Below, one piece after another: positions 44,132 to 52,139 of a stretch of 61,011 nucleotides of DNA. Within the stretch, counting starts at the first letter, position 1. Each line of letters starts with the position of its first letter. A program made the translations under genes and the position numbers. A model generated the notes under the pieces. The model did not search any database and was not told the origin of the DNA. It saw nothing but the letters and a program-made list of their open reading frames with translations. This DNA comes from Colwellia sp. (GTDB lineage: Bacteria > Pseudomonadota > Gammaproteobacteria > Enterobacterales > Alteromonadaceae): positions 1 through 61,011 of the forward strand of contig JALJPA010000003.1 of assembly GCA_022969215.1 (NCBI GenBank), written 5' to 3'.

Positions 44132-44572
44132 TTACTCAACGGTAATAGTAATCTTCTTAGAAACAACCGCTGGTTTATGAGGAATATGATGATGATCGCC
44201 CATAATCAGCTGCAAAGTATGTGTGCCTTTAGGTAAGGTTAACGTTGTTTGAGTTTGACCACCACCGAAGTGTTTTACATCACCACCCATCGGCATATCA
44301 AAAGCAGGCAGTGAGGCCTTATCAATTAATAAGTGATGATGACCCGTATGCTTTTTCGCCATACCAGCAGGAGCAACACCCATATCTTTTAAACCAAAAG
44401 TCACTGTAAAAGTACTTTTCACGGTTGCACCATCGGCAGGTGAAATAATGTAAACATTAGCACTAGCTGGAGATACAGATTGCGGCATACTGCTGGCGTT
44501 AGCTAGTTCCGATGTTAATAACACAGGGCTTAACGCTAAAGTTAACAGTGATAATTGGATAAATTTTTTCAT
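44132..44572 (-). CDS. Secreted DUF4399 domain protein (His-rich)
   Basis: Signal peptide; VYIISPADGATV, FGL..MGVAPAG, TGHHHLLID, HFGGGQT, G.HTLQLIMGDH.HIPH. Confidence 0.83.
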   Translation of the reverse strand: MKKFIQLSLLTLALSPVLLTSELANASSMPQSVSPASANVYIISPADGATVKSTFTVTFGLKDMGVAPAGMAKKHTGHHHLLIDKASLPAFDMPMGGDVKHFGGGQTQTTLTLPKGTHTLQLIMGDHHHIPHKPAVVSKKITITVE

Positions 44573-44675: not shown

Positions 44676-45458
44676 TTAAAATTGGTAATCTATTTTAAAA
44701 TTAAAACTGGTGTCAGTCTGGCTGTAATTTCCCCAATCTAAATTGGAATATACTATTTCACCCGCTAACCCCATACCAAAAGAAAATCTATGTTCTATGG
44801 CGATGTTTGCACCTATCATATAACCATCACTTTTAAGTTGCTGGGTAGTGGCATTGGTAATGTTTTTATTGCCGTTGAGCTGACCCCATTGATAAAAAGG
44901 GCCACCATAGATAATGTCTCTGGCAGCGAATTTATAACCGACTACCCAGGCAATGTCATAAACATTGGTGTCATGCTGCCAATTGCCCGTTTCTGAGACA
45001 TAATCACAATAAAAATCATTGCAATCGCTGTAATAGCCACCATTGTAGTATTGCTCACTAGTAGTATTTCTTTCATAACCTAAGGTAAACGCTTGTGAAA
45101 GATTCCCTTTCGTTGATTGCTCCGTATGGGCACCATAAAATTGATATTTGATACCAACATGAGTCGCTGAATCTTCATCACCTCGTAGTGATATTTCTAA
45201 ACCTTTTGCTGCGGTGATATTACCTCGGTAATAGCCATAAAGATTCGTGCCACTAATATCATAATCATCCCCTTGCTCTTCTATAATCAACCTTGTTCTA
45301 CCGCCATAACCTAAAGCTAAATTCACTTTTAAAGGTTCACTGCTAACTTCTGGATTATCAAATCGAGTAGTAGACATAGAGACACTAACGGGGTTAGTAG
45401 AACAAGCCGATAATAATATAACTAAACATAGGCTGGTGAGTAGGGGGGAATATTTCAT
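44676..45458 (-). CDS. Hypothetical lipoprotein with beta-barrel-like character
   Basis: MKYSPLLTSLCLVILLSAC lipobox (start moved to ATG 45458); amphipathic strands; ends FNFKIDYQF. Confidence 0.6.
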   Translation of the reverse strand: MKYSPLLTSLCLVILLSACSTNPVSVSMSTTRFDNPEVSSEPLKVNLALGYGGRTRLIIEEQGDDYDISGTNLYGYYRGNITAAKGLEISLRGDEDSATHVGIKYQFYGAHTEQSTKGNLSQAFTLGYERNTTSEQYYNGGYYSDCNDFYCDYVSETGNWQHDTNVYDIAWVVGYKFAARDIIYGGPFYQWGQLNGNKNITNATTQQLKSDGYMIGANIAIEHRFSFGMGLAGEIVYSNLDWGNYSQTDTSFNFKIDYQF

Positions 45459-45760
45459 TAATGTCAGATCCTTTTGATATTTTGCCGGCAAAGATAGCAA
45501 AATTATAGAGTTGGCTCAAATAAAAATAGGTCTCATTCTTAAATATAAATTAAGAGGGGGAATATGGGGTGATATGTAAGGGTAACGGGTATCAATATTA
45601 ACTCTGTTTTGTTAAATTCAAGCAAAAGGTTGGTCGAAATATAACCCCTTAAGTGTCATTGGTCAGTTACATTTAATTACTTGATAGCACTTTAATTTTT
45701 TTAGACAACTTGTAATACTGATGCATCGCAAGGTTGACTGCATGGCTTAATTTGCTTTTA

Positions 45761-45789
45761 TTGACTAGGTTAATTTTTTTGATTAACAT
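45761..45789 (+). promoter_or_regulatory. Putative sigma70 promoter of the leader-czcCBA operon
   Basis: TTGACT (45761-66), 17 nt, TAACAT (45784-89); overlapping inverted repeat GTTAAT-N7-ATTAAC. Confidence 0.45.
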
Positions 45790-45830: not shown

Positions 45831-46178
45831 ATGAAAAACACTTGGCTTGGCTTAGTATTAGTATTATTGATTGCATTGCAATCATATGCTGCTGTGGCTA
45901 ATTCAGATGAAAGTCATCAAGTTGACTCACAACATATTCTCACAGAACATTCTCATGATGTTGATGACATTGAACTTTTCGATGAATCATCTGACAGTGA
46001 ACATAATATTAAAGACTGCCATCACTGTGGTCATTGTCAAGGCGCTCATACCCAATGGGTTGCCAGTAACAAATCTGCTTTACCGACACCTCAATTTATA
46101 ATCACCAATCAATATTTCTATACAGACAATTTTGATAAGAGCTTCATTGAAGAGCTTATACGCCCCCCCATTTCTTAA
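45831..46178 (+). CDS. Exported His/Cys-rich small protein with C-terminal RPP (CzcI/DUF2946/CutF-like leader)
   Basis: Signal peptide MKNTWLGLVLVLLIALQSYAAVA; His/acidic tract; DCHHCGHCQG; ends ELIRPPIS; first gene of the metal-efflux operon. Confidence 0.75.
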   Translation: MKNTWLGLVLVLLIALQSYAAVANSDESHQVDSQHILTEHSHDVDDIELFDESSDSEHNIKDCHHCGHCQGAHTQWVASNKSALPTPQFIITNQYFYTDNFDKSFIEELIRPPIS

Positions 46179-46303
46179 TTTAATTTAAAAACTACCCGCA
46201 ACAAACCTTATCTTTAAGCAAAGCTTAACTAAAGCCGAATTTGATTTAGCTTAGTTAGTTTATTTGAGCTTAGTTGCGACATTTTATTGTTAAATTAAGA
46301 GAT
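46170..46303 (+). promoter_or_regulatory. Long nested mRNA stem-loop pairing the leader stop region with the czcC RBS
   Basis: ATTTCTTAATTTAA (46170-83) pairs with TTAAATTAAGAGAT (46290-303): 14 bp with one G-U. Inner helices CGCAAC/GTTGCG, TAAGC/GCTTA, TAACTAAAGC/GCTTAGTTA. Confidence 0.65.
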
Positions 46304-46307
46304 TATT

Positions 46308-47546
46308 ATGAAATTTTTCTCGGTAAAATCTGCTGGCGTAGCGTTATTCATTAGCTACTCGGCAACTATGTCGGTAAGTTGTTTGGCTTTTGCACAAACA
46401 ACTTTATCAAGTGATTGGCTTGATCGACAAATCAATAAACATCCTGATATTGTCTCAGCGCGTGAACTGATGAATGCTGAATTCTCAAAAGCACAGGGCA
46501 GTAAGTTACCACTTTATAACCCTGAATTGTCTACCGGTTATGAGCGAGAAGGTGATGGCAATAACTTTAATATTGGTATTAGCCAAACCATTGATTTGTG
46601 GGATAAGCAGGCCGTTAATGTTGCCATTGGCGATAAAATATTAACCGTAGCTAGTAATCAATTTACTTACGCAGTAGCACAAAAAAAAGCCCAAGCATTA
46701 ACAGCATTGATTAACTGGCAACTTGCCACGGACAAATCGGTACTTGCGTTTGAGCAGGAACAACAATTAGATATTCTGCTAAAAATTGTTACTAAAAGGC
46801 AGCAGGCTGGCGATCTTGGTCCGGTTGATGCTGAGCTGACGTTCTTGAATTTGTCGCAACTACTCAATAAAACTGCGCAAATACAAGCACAGTTAACCCA
46901 AGCTCAAGCGGATGTTAATGAACTACTGCCTGACTGGCGCCCTGATACTCAGGTGTATCCAGAGAAGGGCTTGGGAGTTACAAACTTTCAAGTAGTTGAG
47001 CAGTGGTTAACACAGCATCCGCAAGTATTAGCGGCGCAAGCGCTATGGCAAGTACAAAAAAACATTGCTCAATATGCCATGCTTGAAACCAAAGCAGATC
47101 CTACTATTGGTCTTAGTGCCGGAAAAAATGCTGACGATAATATAGTCGGCATCACCTTTTCTATGCCATTAAATATTCGTAATGACTACCAAGCCAATGC
47201 CAAGGCCAAAAATCAGCAAGCTATCGCCGCAGAAGCGAGTTTTCGTGCGGTTATGCGCAAACAAAAGTATCTGATACAGGCAAGTACCGCGTCATTAATC
47301 TCTAACAAAAAATACCTTGGCCGTTGGCAAGAGTTAATGACAGGGCGTGGCGAAAATAGTGCCCAGTTATTGCAAAAACAATGGCAATTAGGTGATTTAA
47401 ATACCTCTGATTATTTATTAGCGTTACAACAAAGAGCGGAAGGTTTATACGCGGGCATTGAATTACAAGCCCAGTTCAAATTAAGCGAAGTGCAATGGTT
47501 ACTGAATGTCGGCCAATTAAATGTCGCCACTAAGCTATTAAACTAA
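46308..47546 (+). CDS. TolC-family outer-membrane efflux protein (CzcC-like)
   Basis: Signal peptide; HPDI..A, YNPEL, GISQTIDLW.K, R..AGD, HPQV..A, FSMPL..RN; first of the CBA triad. Confidence 0.85.
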   Translation: MKFFSVKSAGVALFISYSATMSVSCLAFAQTTLSSDWLDRQINKHPDIVSARELMNAEFSKAQGSKLPLYNPELSTGYEREGDGNNFNIGISQTIDLWDKQAVNVAIGDKILTVASNQFTYAVAQKKAQALTALINWQLATDKSVLAFEQEQQLDILLKIVTKRQQAGDLGPVDAELTFLNLSQLLNKTAQIQAQLTQAQADVNELLPDWRPDTQVYPEKGLGVTNFQVVEQWLTQHPQVLAAQALWQVQKNIAQYAMLETKADPTIGLSAGKNADDNIVGITFSMPLNIRNDYQANAKAKNQQAIAAEASFRAVMRKQKYLIQASTASLISNKKYLGRWQELMTGRGENSAQLLQKQWQLGDLNTSDYLLALQQRAEGLYAGIELQAQFKLSEVQWLLNVGQLNVATKLLN

Positions 47547-47591: not shown

Positions 47592-48923
47592 TTGTCAAAG
47601 AATTTGGAATTTAAAATGAAAAATATAATAACTGATAAAGTATCTCAAAAAGTAAAAACAATCACTCTAAGCTATCTCTTTACTGGCTTAGCCGTGGTAT
47701 CGACCACTGTGTTAGCCTACAGCGATGCTGCGCTTGAAAATCCGAAACCGGTAGTGCAAACAATAGTGGCACAAGCGGAACATAAACATGAAACTGGCCA
47801 TGATCACGAAAGTGAGCAGAAAGCAGCAGAGGATGAAACTGGTCATGATCATGACAGTGAAAATAAAGCCGACGATGGTCACGGGCATGAAAAGTCTAGT
47901 GAAGAAGATCATGAAGAAGGCATAAGCTTCAGCCCAGAAAAAATGGCCTTAGCTAATATCAAAGTATCTACTCTAAGGGCAAAAATTTTCGCTAAAAGCG
48001 TTTATGCCCCAGGAGAAATAAAAGCCAACGGTTACACCAGTTATATTGTCTCGCCACGTACTGAGTCAGTAGTGATCAGCCGTCACGCTATTTTGGGCGA
48101 ACATGTCGAAAAAGGTCAAGCGCTAGTGACACTATTTAGTGAGTCAATGGCAGACGCACAAGCCGAATATCGTCTTGCTTATAGCGAGTGGCAGCGCACT
48201 AAAAAATTGGGTCTTGGTACAGTCAGTGAAAGCCGTTTATTAGCCAGTGAAACAGCTTATATTACGACCTCTGGTCGGCTAAAAGCCTTTGGTTTAACCA
48301 AAGCCGCCATTGACGATATTGTTAAGAATAATTCATCAAACCTTGGTGAGTATACCTTGGTAGCTAAACGCGCTGGTGCGGTATTAAGTGATGATTTTTC
48401 CCAAGGGCAGCGAGTGATGCCTGGGGATAAAATAATGGTCTTGGCCAACGAAGAAAGTTTATGGGTAGAAGCGCGCGTTTCACCCAATAAGAAACTGAAC
48501 TTACCCGTAGGAACCCTAGCTAAAATTGAGTTTGCTGGCCAAGTACATTTCGCTAAAGTGATCCAAGAAGCACACACCATAGACCCCATTACCCGTACTC
48601 GAATTGTGCGATTGTCCGTTGACAATAAAGATGACACCTTACATTCCGGCATGTTTGTTAATGTAAATTTTCAGTTTGATACCCAAACCCCAGTAATGGC
48701 GGTACCAGAAACGGCATTAATGCGTGGCGCTGATGGTGATTGGACGGTATTTGTTGAAGATCACCCAGGTGAGTTTAAAGCCGTTGAAGTAGAGCTGGGT
48801 CAGCCTTTAGGTCATTACCGTCAAATTATCGGTATTGCCCCTAATACGCGAGTAGTAATCAAAGGTGCATTCTTTGTTGCTTCAGAAATTGCAAAAGGCG
48901 GATTTGATCCGCACGGCCACTAG
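47592..48923 (+). CDS. RND efflux periplasmic adaptor (CzcB-like) with His-rich N-terminal region
   Basis: His/acidic tract; APGEI.AN, G..V.KGQ.L, LWVEA, IDPITRT, GMFV, ends GGFDPHGH. Start TTG 47592 or ATG 47616. Confidence 0.88.
   Translation: MSKNLEFKMKNIITDKVSQKVKTITLSYLFTGLAVVSTTVLAYSDAALENPKPVVQTIVAQAEHKHETGHDHESEQKAAEDETGHDHDSENKADDGHGHEKSSEEDHEEGISFSPEKMALANIKVSTLRAKIFAKSVYAPGEIKANGYTSYIVSPRTESVVISRHAILGEHVEKGQALVTLFSESMADAQAEYRLAYSEWQRTKKLGLGTVSESRLLASETAYITTSGRLKAFGLTKAAIDDIVKNNSSNLGEYTLVAKRAGAVLSDDFSQGQRVMPGDKIMVLANEESLWVEARVSPNKKLNLPVGTLAKIEFAGQVHFAKVIQEAHTIDPITRTRIVRLSVDNKDDTLHSGMFVNVNFQFDTQTPVMAVPETALMRGADGDWTVFVEDHPGEFKAVEVELGQPLGHYRQIIGIAPNTRVVIKGAFFVASEIAKGGFDPHGH
47788..47869 (+). 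repeat. Intragenic 45-nt-period imperfect tandem duplication encoding ETGHDH(E/D)SExKA
   Basis: ATGAAACTGGCCATGATCACGAAAGTGAGCAGAAAGC (47788) and ATGAAACTGGTCATGATCATGACAGTGAAAATAAAGC (47833). Confidence 0.8.
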
Positions 48924-48938
48924 GTAAGGAATGAAATT

Positions 48939-51900
48939 ATGTTTAATAAAATGATTGATTGGTCGATCAATAATCGACTATTGGTAGTTATCGCACTGAT
49001 CGCCACAATGGCGGCAGCTATTATGGTGATCCCCAAGTTAAATTTAGATGCTTTTCCTGACGTAACCAATGTTCAGGTCGCTATAAATACCGAAGCACCT
49101 GGCTTAGCCGCTGAAGAAGTTGAGCAGCTAATTACTTATCCTATTGAAGCTGTGATGTATGCACTGCCTGATGTTGAGCAAGTACGTTCAATTTCAAAAA
49201 CAGGTTTGTCGGGCGTAACGGTAGTTTTTAAAGAAGGCACCGACATTTATTTTGCTCGACAACTGGTCTTTGAACGCTTGCAAGCGGCGAAAGAATTAAT
49301 TCCCCAAGGTGTAGGTACACCAGCCATGGGGCCTAATACCTCGGGCTTGGGTCAAATCTTTCAGTATTTGTTAATTGCTGACAAAGATTCTGGCTATGAC
49401 TCAATGACTTTAAGAAGTTTGAACGACTGGATAGTAAAATTATTAGTTATGCCGGTAGATGGTGTTACCGATGTCTTGTCTTTTGGCGGCAATGTTAGGC
49501 AGTATCAGGTAAACATTGAACCAAGTAAATTATTGTCATATCAGTTAACGCAAGACGATATTGTTAGAGCACTTGAGAATAATAATACCAATGTTGGTGG
49601 TTGGTATATGAACCGCGGGCAAGAGCAATTAGTGATTCGTGGTACGGGTTGGTTTAATAGTGGCGAAGCAGGTTTAGACGATATTAGACAAGTACCAGTG
49701 AAAACCGTTGCGGGTACTGTCGTTACTATTGATGATGTTGCGAAAGTTTCACTGGGCAGTGAGATTCGTCAAGGCGCGGTAACAATGACGCGCAGAGACG
49801 CAGAGGGCAATATTGAAAACTTAGGTGAAGTGGTCACCGGCATAGTGCTAAAACGTATGGGCGCAAATACTAAAGCGACCATTGACGGTATTAGTGCACG
49901 TATTCCTATGATCAACCAAGCATTACCTGAAGGTGTACGTTTTGAACCCTTCTATGACCAGGCTGATTTAATTACTAAAGCGGTTGATACCGTGGTTGAA
50001 GCACTCGCCTTAGCATTTATCTTCATTGCTATCGTGTTAGCGCTGTTTTTAATGAACCTACGCGCCACGTTTTTAGTACTGATTTCAATTCCTATTTCTA
50101 TCGCTATCGCGTTAATGGTGATGTCTTGGATAGGTTTATCCGCTAACTTAATGTCGTTAGGCGGTATTGCGGTTGCTATTGGTATGCTGGTTGATGGCTC
50201 GGTAGTGATGGTTGAAAACATGGTAAAACATCTTAATAGACCTGATGCAACGCATTACGAAAATGCTCAAGCAAGAAATCCAGATACGGATGCTGATCCA
50301 CATAATGCTGCAGATGATGAAGCAGGTATCCCTTTACGATTAAAAGAAGCGGGTAAAGAAGTCGCCCGTCCGGTATTTTTTGCCGCCTCAATTATTTTAG
50401 TGGTCTTTATGCCGCTGTTTAGTTTTGAAGGTGTTGAAGCTAAATTGTTCCAACCTATGGCTATCAGCATTATTTTAGCGGTTGTTTCGGCTATTTTAGT
50501 GGCATTACTTGTGGTACCAGCTTTAGCGACTTATATGTTTAAAAAAGGCATTAAAGAAAAAGAAAGCTTTGTCTTAAAACCACTAGACAAGCTTTATCGC
50601 AAAGGGCTTACAGCGGCAATGAAGCACACTAAAGTAGTTATTGCTGCGTCTGTTTTATTATTTGTTGCCGCAGCCGCTTTAGTACCACAAATTGGTACCG
50701 AGTTTGTACCTGAGCTCGAAGAAGGCACTATTAACCTAAGAGCGACTTTGGCGCCTTCATCAAGTTTGGAAACTGCCTTGTCAGTGGCCCCCATTCTTGA
50801 AGCAATGCTAATGGAATTCCCTGAAGTAGAGTACACCCTAAGCAGAATTGGTCGTGCTGAAATCGGCGGTGATCCAGAGCCGGTCAATAATATTGAAATA
50901 TACATTGGCTTAAAACCTGTCTCCGAGTGGACCAGCGCCAGTAATCGTATTGAGCTACAGGGTTTAATGGAAGAGAAACTTGAACAATTTCCTGGTTTAT
51001 TACTTAACTTTTCACAGCCAATTGCTACGCGTGTCGATGAGTTACTTTCTGGCGTTAAAGCGCAACTTGCGATTAAGCTGTTTGGCCCTGAGTTAGATAT
51101 TCTGGCGAGTAAAGGTCGAGAAATTGAAGCGGCAATCAAAAAAATTGACGGTGCTAGGGATGTTGCGCTAGAACAAATCGCGGGCGAAGCACAACTAGTG
51201 ATCAAACCGAATAGACAACAGCTATCACGATATGGCTTGTCGGTGGGTGATGTTATGGCCGTGGTTAAAGATGGCATTGGCGGCGTTAGTGCTGGCCAAA
51301 TAATTAATGGTAATGAAAGATACGATATTTATGTACGTTTTGAAGAAAAATATCGTGATAACCAAGCAGCTATTGCCGACTTAAGAATACAATCACCTAC
51401 CGGTGCTTGGGTGCGTTTAGGCGATATCGCTACCGTTAGTTTTGAATCTGGACCGCCACAAGTTCGCCGTGATGACGTGCAAAGACGTGTGGTTATTCAA
51501 GCCAATGTACAGGGTCGTGACATGGGCAGTGTAGTCGCTGATATTCGTGCCGCCATTGCCAGTAAAGTGGACTTGCCAGCAGGTTATTCTGTGGTTATTG
51601 GTGGTCAGTTTGAAAATCAACAACGCGCACAGCAACGACTTGCTGTGGTAGTGCCGTTATCACTGGCGTTAATTGCTTTACTACTTTACTTTGCCTTTGG
51701 CTCGGTTGGTCAAGCTATGCTGATATTAGTGAATGTACCATTGGCTATTATTGGTGGTATTTTCGCGCTCTATATTTCGGAGCAATATTTATCAGTACCG
51801 AGCTCGGTTGGTTTTATTACTTTATTTGGTGTTGCCGTGCTTAATGGTGTGGTGATGGTAGAAAGTATTAATCAACTGGTTAAAGACGGTATTGACACCT

Positions 51901-52139
51901 CAACAGCAGTTTTTGATGGCGCAGTATCACGTTTACGTCCGGTATTGATGACGGCTATAACTTCGGCACTAGGTCTAATACCTATGCTGATGTCAAATGG
52001 TGTTGGTGCTGAAATTCAACGACCACTTGCCAGTGTTATTGTTGGTGGCTTAGTAACAGCAACGTTATTAACGCTATTTGTTTTACCAGTATTGTATCCA
52101 TGGTTTTCTAAAACAAAAATTGTCCAACTAACGCGTTAA
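48939..52139 (+). CDS. CusA/CzcA family heavy-metal efflux RND permease
   Basis: LDAFPDVTNVQV, EEVEQLITYPIE, YFARQLVFERL, NLMSLGG.A.AIGMLVDGSVVMVEN, RLRPVLMTA, EIQRPLA. Confidence 0.94.
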   Translation: MFNKMIDWSINNRLLVVIALIATMAAAIMVIPKLNLDAFPDVTNVQVAINTEAPGLAAEEVEQLITYPIEAVMYALPDVEQVRSISKTGLSGVTVVFKEGTDIYFARQLVFERLQAAKELIPQGVGTPAMGPNTSGLGQIFQYLLIADKDSGYDSMTLRSLNDWIVKLLVMPVDGVTDVLSFGGNVRQYQVNIEPSKLLSYQLTQDDIVRALENNNTNVGGWYMNRGQEQLVIRGTGWFNSGEAGLDDIRQVPVKTVAGTVVTIDDVAKVSLGSEIRQGAVTMTRRDAEGNIENLGEVVTGIVLKRMGANTKATIDGISARIPMINQALPEGVRFEPFYDQADLITKAVDTVVEALALAFIFIAIVLALFLMNLRATFLVLISIPISIAIALMVMSWIGLSANLMSLGGIAVAIGMLVDGSVVMVENMVKHLNRPDATHYENAQARNPDTDADPHNAADDEAGIPLRLKEAGKEVARPVFFAASIILVVFMPLFSFEGVEAKLFQPMAISIILAVVSAILVALLVVPALATYMFKKGIKEKESFVLKPLDKLYRKGLTAAMKHTKVVIAASVLLFVAAAALVPQIGTEFVPELEEGTINLRATLAPSSSLETALSVAPILEAMLMEFPEVEYTLSRIGRAEIGGDPEPVNNIEIYIGLKPVSEWTSASNRIELQGLMEEKLEQFPGLLLNFSQPIATRVDELLSGVKAQLAIKLFGPELDILASKGREIEAAIKKIDGARDVALEQIAGEAQLVIKPNRQQLSRYGLSVGDVMAVVKDGIGGVSAGQIINGNERYDIYVRFEEKYRDNQAAIADLRIQSPTGAWVRLGDIATVSFESGPPQVRRDDVQRRVVIQANVQGRDMGSVVADIRAAIASKVDLPAGYSVVIGGQFENQQRAQQRLAVVVPLSLALIALLLYFAFGSVGQAMLILVNVPLAIIGGIFALYISEQYLSVPSSVGFITLFGVAVLNGVVMVESINQLVKDGIDTSTAVFDGAVSRLRPVLMTAITSALGLIPMLMSNGVGAEIQRPLASVIVGGLVTATLLTLFVLPVLYPWFSKTKIVQLTR

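Follow-up and report, generated by a model that had tools for sequence, protein, structure and literature searches.

A putative co-translationally exported metal-sensing leader peptide of the CutF/CruR kind upstream of a heavy-metal RND efflux operon in Colwellia

Introduction

What controls a heavy-metal efflux operon that has no regulator gene at its side? This question is raised by a 61,011-nt stretch of DNA from Colwellia sp. (NCBI GenBank assembly GCA_022969215.1, contig JALJPA010000003.1, positions 1 to 61,011 of the forward strand), hereafter the window, in which the genes for an outer-membrane factor (OEP), a periplasmic adaptor and a CusA/CzcA-family RND permease follow a short leader open reading frame (ORF) of 115 codons. 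An original prediction made from the DNA letters had stated that no regulator gene of the two-component, MerR or ArsR type flanks the operon, and none is found among the ORFs between 35.9 and 61.0 kb. The same prediction had proposed that the leader is an exported Cys/His peptide which controls the pump genes in cis through an Arg-Pro-Pro (RPP) motif at its end. This core reading agrees with every in silico test that was run here, and it is from these that we infer, rather than observe, ribosome arrest and its dependence on metal. With a probability of about 0.6, we consider that the leader acts in cis, is exported while being translated, senses metal and belongs with the DUF2946-related peptides of the CutF/CruR kind.

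Proteins with the DUF2946 domain carry CXXC and, three residues from their C-terminal end, RAPP; more than 95% of them have an export signal (Roy et al. 2022, PMC9426467). CruR of Bordetella pertussis (Bp2923) is encoded by an upstream ORF (uORF), at which copper relieves the arrest at RAPP, leading to Rho-dependent termination before the gene of a TonB-dependent transporter (PMC9426467). RAPP-type peptides stall the ribosome with the codon of the third residue in the P site (Fujiwara et al. 2024, PMC10987492). CutF of Rhodobacter capsulatus is exported co-translationally; with copper bound to the Cys motif, the ribosome stalls longer at the C-terminal PPP, and this opens a stem-loop shielding the Shine-Dalgarno (SD) sequence of cutO (Öztürk et al. 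2023, PMC9973294; 10.1101/2025.02.05.636593). The metal-binding motifs of CutF-like proteins may be Cys, His or mixed, the mechanism has been proposed as general, and the commonest downstream neighbours of CutF-like genes are RND OEP genes, followed by ACR_tran, HlyD_D23 and CusF (PMC9973294). The principle and the RND-pump association of this family are already published, which makes the earlier statement that no such control had been described for a CBA pump outdated at the bioinformatic level. The pump-linked subfamily is well defined. Beyond this bioinformatic statement of PMC9973294, a literature survey of incomplete coverage gave no experiment in which an RND metal pump is controlled by an arrest peptide.

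Results

The leader is a conserved gene related to DUF2946

The leader, whose features are listed in Table 1, reads as first described: a positively charged and hydrophobic N-terminus, MKNTWLGLVLVLLIALQSYAAVA followed by NS, that resembles a signal peptide, then a His/Asp/Glu tract, a CHHCGHC cluster, and the C-terminus R111-P112-P113-I114-S115-stop, encoded by CGC CCC CCC ATT TCT TAA. The spacer, which had been put at roughly 40 residues, comprises 41 residues between C69 and R111, and 44 when counted from C66. Among the Pro codons in the long genes of the window, CCC is used least (10%), and 20% of the Arg codons are CGC.

A word-indexed search returned 64 close homologues with 50-94% identity, nearly all of them 115 residues long, with Colwellia as the main source, some members in Paraglaciecola and Pseudoalteromonas and one in a Methylophaga metagenome-assembled genome, and an exhaustive search of 1.84 billion representatives found 177 clusters that match the leader at E<=1e-3. 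We conclude from these two sets that the leader ORF is a real conserved gene. Several of the close homologues are labelled "DUF2946 domain-containing protein" by NCBI or UniRef. The sole Pfam match of the leader is DUF2946 (PF11162; residues 5-90, E 1.4e-4), with 23.0 bits, below the gathering score of 23.7, and 16 of 75 members of the subfamily match PF11162 at E<0.01. Its sole NCBIfam match is the CopL family (NF033807; E 1e-3), in an alignment that reaches the C-terminus and scores 19.7 bits, below the cut-off of 40.

The CXXC feature of DUF2946 and CruR is present twice in the leader, as C63-HH-C66 and as C66-GH-C69, and the fixed distance of about 45 residues that separates CXXC from the arrest motif has its counterpart in a stretch of 44 residues from C66 to R111. 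RAPP, which in that family stands some three residues from the C-terminus, is absent, and in its place the leader has R-P-P without the Ala, then two residues. The rule-based definition of CutF-like proteins (PMC9973294) also covers the leader, with its 115 residues, PP at positions 112-113, signal-like N-terminus and an OEP gene 129 nt downstream. All the published hallmarks (PMC9426467, PMC9973294) are present except the Ala of RAPP, and the class assignment to the CruR/CutF kind was right: judged by its sequence, the leader is a peripheral relative of DUF2946 (CruR/CutF/CopL).

The distance between the Cys cluster and the Pro motif is fixed

Conservation was followed in an alignment of 29 close homologues, in a second one of 75 diverse relatives, and in 133 representatives of 50%-identity clusters, namely those with both the Cys and the PP motifs. 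Invariant residues among the close homologues include Q17, S18, H29, H35, H40, H42, H58, the D62-CHHCGHCQG-71 motif, H73, W76, Y95, Y97, E107 and R111-P112-P113-I114. Among the diverse relatives, C63, C66, H68, C69, P112 and P113 are invariant, and Q17, S18, H29 and H35 nearly so. RPPI is unvarying throughout the Colwellia-type set, and the Cys cluster takes the form DCHHC[GC]HC[HSQ]G among the 133 representatives. In these, PP is preceded by Arg in 121, the next residue after PP is Ile in 100 and Lys in 21, and the protein ends exactly two residues after PP in 115.

The second Cys and the first Pro lie 44, 45 or 46 residues apart in 131 of the 133 representatives, and the length from the N-terminus to the first Cys varies with a standard deviation of 14 residues. 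In the alignment of 75 sequences, the stretch that separates the Cys cluster from RPP contains not a single conserved column. Fixed in length and free in sequence, the spacer is thus a ruler and not a folded domain. AlphaFold2, run with the 75-sequence alignment, predicts a confident helix only at the signal segment (predicted local distance difference test score, pLDDT, 95-98), and the mature part, with a pLDDT of 55-66 and a predicted template modelling score of 0.29, has no confident fold. The RPP codons differ synonymously among the loci (CGC, CGT or AGA for Arg, nearly always CGC; CCT, CCC, CCA or CCG for Pro), arguing for selection on the peptide. Conservation of RPP and of its distance from the cysteines had been named beforehand as a check on the reading, and both are kept.

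In silico, the codons next to PP pair with the SD of the OEP gene

The minimum free energy (MFE) fold of positions 46130-46330, which span the 129-nt gap between the leader stop and the OEP start codon, is a rod (z = -2.9), closed by a helix in which two of the 15 pairs are G-U. This helix joins the 5' arm, made of the Ile and Ser codons, the stop and 6 further nt, to a 3' arm that carries the only SD-like sequence before the OEP ATG (Table 1). Among 401 windows at this locus, the 5' arm is the best partner for the SD window. In the partition function of the free mRNA, the SD has an unpaired probability of 0.01 at 37 °C and 0.00 at 10 °C. A stalled ribosome was modelled by forbidding pairing at 46152-46179 or 46155-46182, with P112 or P113 in the P site, respectively. 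With this footprint masked, the ensemble loses about 15 kcal/mol and the mean unpaired probability of the SD is 0.22-0.36. In silico, the locus has a counterpart of the SD-shielding stem-loop of CutF-like systems, one that a stalled ribosome would open in part.

The pairing recurs in other lineages with different sequences

Is this pairing a particularity of the window? A 16-nt window was slid over 300 nt of leader and intergenic region and scored against 21 nt around the SD of the next gene, at 68 non-identical loci (about 350-400 windows each; loci are numbered with the prefix L). The best SD partner starts between -7 and +6 nt from the end of the PP codons in 36 of the 68, against about 3 by chance, a count that overstates independence as the loci are related, that is not to be taken as a probability, and that is made noisy by misplaced downstream starts at L003, L011, L012, L018, L081, L090 and L101. 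The arm sequences change between lineages with complementarity kept in L022, L057, L104, L108, L109, L110, L111 and L113 (shuffle p 0.002-0.05). Table 2 gives the arms of six of these loci, and L110 and L113 have their own distinct arm pairs. In L057, a U-A pair of the window type is replaced by C-G, with both sides changed.

The tails of some leaders separate the arm from the stop codon. In L022, the tail RPPIKNSQSV has six residues beyond RPPI, and the anti-SD lies inside the extra codons, at the same distance from PP rather than behind the stop. L019, L072 and L073 each carry one inserted base, and in the shifted frame the arm is read as extra codons (…ISLI, …IRLI and …IHLI). These variants indicate that the arm follows PP and not the stop codon, and that its conservation is at the RNA level. 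Conserved blocks in 34 intergenic regions of the Colwellia type are limited to the two arms and the CGCAAC/GTTGCG middle stem. Of the cells there, 86.6% pair, versus 30-44% when the partner is slid by 1-3 columns. The middle stem is paired in 90% of the cells, and two of its six pairs are changed on both sides.

Several loci carry intergenic regions of another make. In L119 (G088:C1, second copy), UUUCCCGCU directly after PP pairs with the mid-region AGCGGGAGA, and the GGGAG of this mid-region can alternatively pair with a downstream CUCCC, which matches the next-gene SD, GGGAG; this arrangement looks like an ermC-like four-segment relay rather than direct SD pairing. The intergenic region of L113 (G271:C2) holds a GC-rich hairpin, CCTCCC...GGGAGG, followed by TTTTTT, and this locus may use transcription attenuation. 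In some Colwellia strains (L002, L003 and L011), the 3' arm is interrupted, just upstream of the SD, by an inserted palindrome of about 59 nt whose inverted repeats lie around CCGCATAAAGAAG...CTTTCTTATACGG. The same insertion variant is found in a contig of DNA run X1, at window position 46295/46296. In L002, where the leader stop is mutated (tail RPPISYI), the sequence now found on the 5' side, AUAUCUUAUA, matches the one that now flanks the SD, UAUAAGAGAU; in L011, the insertion is not accompanied by this change.

Table 1 Features of the leader and pump locus in the window
Feature	Position	Strand	Details
Candidate sigma-70 promoter	45761..45789	+	TTGACT, 17 nt, TAACAT; consensus scan 9/12
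Leader ORF, CutF/CruR-like (DUF2946-related)	45831..46178	+	115 aa; ATG 45831, TAA 46176-46178
Signal-peptide-like N-terminus, residues 1-23	45831..45899	+	read from sequence; A-V-A before N24
His/Asp/Glu-rich tract, residues 29-58	45915..46004	+	conserved H29, H35, H40, H42, H58
Candidate metal-binding motif D-C-H-H-C-G-H-C-Q-G, residues 62-71	46014..46043	+	invariant Cys/His in relatives
Spacer, residues 72-110	46044..46160	+	length fixed, sequence poorly conserved
R111-P112-P113 codons, candidate arrest site	46161..46169	+	CGC CCC CCC; P112/P113 invariant
5' arm (anti-SD)	46170..46184	+	Ile-Ser-stop codons + 6 nt, ATTTCTTAATTTAAT; MFE fold
Inner helices of the intergenic rod	46197..46278	+	include CGCAAC (46197-46202) / GTTGCG (46273-46278) stem
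3' arm with SD of the OEP gene	46289..46303	+	GTTAAATTAAGAGAT; OEP ATG at 46308
Outer-membrane factor (OEP, CzcC/CusC-like)	46308..47546	+	PF02321, E 2e-19
Periplasmic adaptor (HlyD_D23, CzcB/CusB-like)	47592..48923	+	likely ATG 47616
CusA/CzcA-family heavy-metal RND permease	48939..52139	+	TIGR00914, 1034 bits vs cut-off 701.45

Table 2 Arms of the PP-adjacent pairing in the window type and at other loci
Locus	5' arm	3' arm
Window type	CUUAAUUUAAU	AUUAAAUUAAG
L057	CUUAAUUC	GAAUUAAG
L104	AUUUCUUAAAUUU	AAAUUUAAGAAGU
L108	GUCUAACUCACCAU	AUGGUGGGUUAAC
L109	UCUAACCCA	UGGGUUAGA
L111	AAAUCCUG	CAGGAUUU
L022	AAUUCCCA	UGGGAAUU

A conserved candidate promoter precedes the leader

Across 21 homologous loci, the only conserved block upstream of the leader is TTGACT, 17 nt, TA(A/G)CAT, and no conserved dyad stands beside this candidate promoter. 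A conserved promoter without a conserved dyad fits a constitutive promoter, with control exerted after transcription start. The consensus scan found no internal promoter between the leader and the OEP gene. A search for intrinsic terminators gave none in the leader-OEP intergenic region, the single terminator-like match lying inside the OEP gene. The gene order, together with the lack of an internal promoter or terminator, suggests that the leader and the pump genes are co-transcribed. Two metatranscriptome runs contain only short contigs, one run at 45845-45940 and the other at 46296-46494, which give no level, ends or strand and may reflect DNA carry-over; the loose end of the 46296-46494 contig matches the L002-type variant, indicating that this contig comes from a relative.

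The leader is linked to metal-pump genes

The gene directly after the leader was identified in ten diverse relatives, drawn both from metagenomes and from further families of this class: it encodes an OEP in eight and a HlyD_D23 adaptor in two. A member of the leader family is present in 13 of 400 sampled genomes of the class. In the genome under study, which is 87% complete, the leader is a single copy, and at least two further CusA/CzcA-family RND gene fragments (contigs C352 and C166) occur without a second leader copy. This genome holds many histidine kinases, none of which exceeds the cut-off of the heavy-metal sensor kinase family TIGR01386 in the 87% that is covered (best match 196.5 versus 292.55 bits, contig C394).

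The permease of the window belongs to TIGR00914, and the OEP and HlyD_D23 genes are adjacent to it. The adaptor's N-terminal region is rich in His, Asp and Glu, and no CusF gene is found at the pump locus. Transmembrane segment 4 of the permease (residues about 400-430) reads AIGMLVDGSVVMVEN. In CzcA this segment is of the type DFG...DGA...VEN, and in CusA of the type A-x-G...DAA...IEN; we take that of the window to be intermediate, fitting neither type. The pump may belong to a less studied heavy-metal efflux (HME) subgroup. The czcCBA label used in the original prediction is supported as far as membership in the CusA/CzcA family goes, and with regard to a Zn/Co/Cd substrate it is best read as a convenience name.

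The other ORFs between 35.9 and 61.0 kb are those for an acyltransferase, a methyladenine-glycosylase-like protein, an M3 peptidase, a pyridine-nucleotide disulphide oxidoreductase, a chemoreceptor, a DUF4399 protein, a 274-residue protein without family, DNA polymerase I, a 344-residue protein without family, a CitMHS/Na-sulphate-type transporter and a DUF748 protein. There is no transcription factor or sensor kinase among them, and the operon has no regulator gene for about 10 kb around it. Two of these genes diverge from the leader. The DUF4399 gene (44132-44572, minus strand) encodes a signal peptide and the His-rich stretches HTGHHH and GDHHH. The 274-residue protein (44676-45500, minus strand), which has no family match, carries a lipoprotein-type signal, LLSAC, and ends in ...YQF, a C-terminus typical of outer-membrane beta-barrels. 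Both divergent genes may share a metal-related neighbourhood.

Discussion

How might such a leader switch on the pump genes? We propose that leader and pump genes share one transcript, made from the conserved promoter, which seems to lack an operator. In the free mRNA, 46170-46184 would pair with the SD region of the OEP gene at 46289-46303 and, with its SD paired, this gene would not be translated, which may also expose the message to polarity. The nascent leader would be targeted to SecYEG, as suggested by its signal peptide. A length of about 45 residues is roughly that of the exit tunnel plus the SecYEG channel. With RPP at the peptidyl-transferase centre, the Cys/His cluster would stand 43-49 residues back and the His tract would already be periplasmic. 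By analogy with CutF, metal bound to the emerging segment would prolong the pause at RPP; the paused ribosome would cover the 5' arm (46170-46182), the SD would be freed and the OEP translated. Translation of the adaptor and RND genes would presumably follow, and one may speculate that translation of the OEP gene (1.2 kb) shields the message from polarity, aiding the two distal genes. The sign of the response, with metal as the ON signal, is taken from physiological logic. The sensed metal is perhaps other than copper, given the Cys3His3 cluster and the His tract.

Several points weigh against this reading. RAPP-like sequences in ordinary proteins mostly do not stall (PMC10987492), and RPP is neither the tested RAPP nor the tested PPP motif. 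CruR and CutF respond in opposite ways, copper relieving the arrest of the former and inducing that of the latter. The leader scores below threshold in both families that it matches. In the folding model, masking the footprint frees the SD only partly. The comparative count comes from related loci; the covariation within Colwellia is modest, with 11 cells changed on both sides, as the arms hardly vary, and these arms are A/U-rich; and no significant direct PP-adjacent pairing was found in L106, L107, L115 and L119, nor in L002 by the shuffle test. Lastly, a transcription factor could be encoded elsewhere, in a genome that is 87% complete.

We regard as unlikely a constitutive translational coupling in which the helix ties the OEP gene to translation of the leader and a pause at PP lengthens the opening, without sensing of metal by the nascent chain. 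Any metal control would then be transcriptional, through a factor encoded elsewhere, and the secreted peptide may bind metal afterwards. Any ribosome passing 46170-46178 opens the helix, RAPP-like motifs are known mostly not to arrest on their own (PMC10987492), and the incomplete genome, with its many histidine kinases and a best heavy-metal-type match of 196 versus 292 bits, leaves room for such a factor. However, coupling explains neither the Cys-to-PP distance of 44-46 residues, kept in 131 of the 133 representatives across an unconserved spacer, nor the arm that tracks PP rather than the stop in the L022- and L019-type tails, and the conserved promoter has no adjoining conserved operator.

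A second alternative, which we hold to be improbable, is that the leader follows the logic of CruR: arrest at RPP would be the default and metal would release it, with Rho-dependent termination or lost SD exposure as the output, so that metal would lower expression, or else a signal different from metal excess would be monitored. A nascent segment that metal causes to fold close to the exit of the tunnel or translocon can generate a pulling force that releases arrest, and this would suit such a mechanism. CruR is, moreover, the prototype of DUF2946 and has the same anatomy of CXXC, ruler and R(A)PP, with a spacing of 45 residues and an intergenic region of 162 nt, versus 129 nt at the window locus (PMC9426467). 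Both are products of a uORF, exported or, for the window leader, predicted to be exported, that forms the first gene of a metal operon and precedes a long intergenic region, with a ruler of about 45 residues kept within 1-2 residues and an R-x-P-P-type motif near the stop. Unlike the window leader, CruR has RAPP and a dispensable signal peptide, and its target is a copper-repressed TonB-dependent importer. Shutting an efflux pump as metal rises would make little physiological sense, the SD-sequestering helix is the arrangement of CutF (PMC9973294), and a scan for intrinsic terminators gave none in the intergenic region.

To a third alternative, a plain secreted periplasmic metal-binding protein that acts in trans as a chaperone, buffer or CzcI-like regulator, with RPPI as an interaction or processing motif and an incidental helix, we give little credence: the Cys/His motif is strongly conserved, as are N93, Q94, Y95, Y97 and E107 within the Colwellia clade, CzcI precedes czcCBA in Cupriavidus without a Pro motif (PMC9973294) and the leader could have a dual role, but the mature part is without a confident fold, the ruler is fixed in length and free in sequence, the PP-adjacent anti-SD complementarity recurs with different sequences in several lineages, and CutF and CopL act only in cis (PMC9973294).

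The metal-sensing, cis-acting leader that we favour is closest in design to CutF. As in cutFOG, the first gene is small, its product is Sec-exported, here by prediction, and it has a Cys motif for metal and, shortly ahead of the stop codon, a Pro repeat. The downstream SD is shielded by an mRNA helix, here in silico, which stalling is proposed to open, and the leader would likewise act in cis. CutF itself has CxxxC, PPP (…GPPPRL) and a Tat-exported multicopper oxidase as its target. By contrast, the window leader has DCHHCGHC with a His tract, RPP plus two residues and an OEP-membrane fusion protein-RND pump as its target, and its anti-SD consists of the leader's own last codons and stop, closing a 105-nt rod. 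CopL of Xanthomonas and Stenotrophomonas is likewise a small Cys/His-rich leader, needed in cis for metal-induced copA (PMC9973294), but its downstream gene encodes an oxidase, not a pump. CzcI of Cupriavidus metallidurans, a small periplasmic protein encoded directly upstream of czcCBA and likened here by description, is found among the CutF-like proteins (sequence similarity network cluster 20) but lacks the C-terminal Pro motif (PMC9973294). With SecM, ApdA and ApdP (PMC10987492) and the ermC-type leaders, the window leader would share an exported nascent chain with an arrest motif at the peptidyl-transferase centre and a stalled ribosome that remodels the mRNA and exposes an SD; those leaders monitor the secretion machinery or an antibiotic, not extracytoplasmic metal, and their motif is R-A-P-P or R-A-G-P.

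More tentatively, the DCHHC[GC]HC...RPPI subfamily could be a self-contained translational ON switch for an HME-RND pump, requiring no transcription factor, in which the nascent chain senses periplasmic metal, maybe not copper, at the SecYEG exit and the anti-SD resides in the last codons of the leader. Comparative handles on this subfamily are the ruler, about 45 residues long, the RPP motif with two residues after it, and an anti-SD next to PP whose sequence changes between lineages without loss of complementarity. Nature supplies many ready-made alleles, among them leaders with a frame-shifted tail, a 3' arm that has gained 59 nt and an intergenic region of the relay type. For metal efflux pumps, the textbook picture is control by two-component or MerR-type regulators. 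If this reading is true, it would be the first time that a tripartite efflux pump is shown to be under the control of an arrest peptide. The CutF/CruR principle, by which extracytoplasmic metal is sensed through the translocon and reported to the ribosome, would then be extended, by a pump that its nascent leader turns on, to the commonest genomic context of the family.

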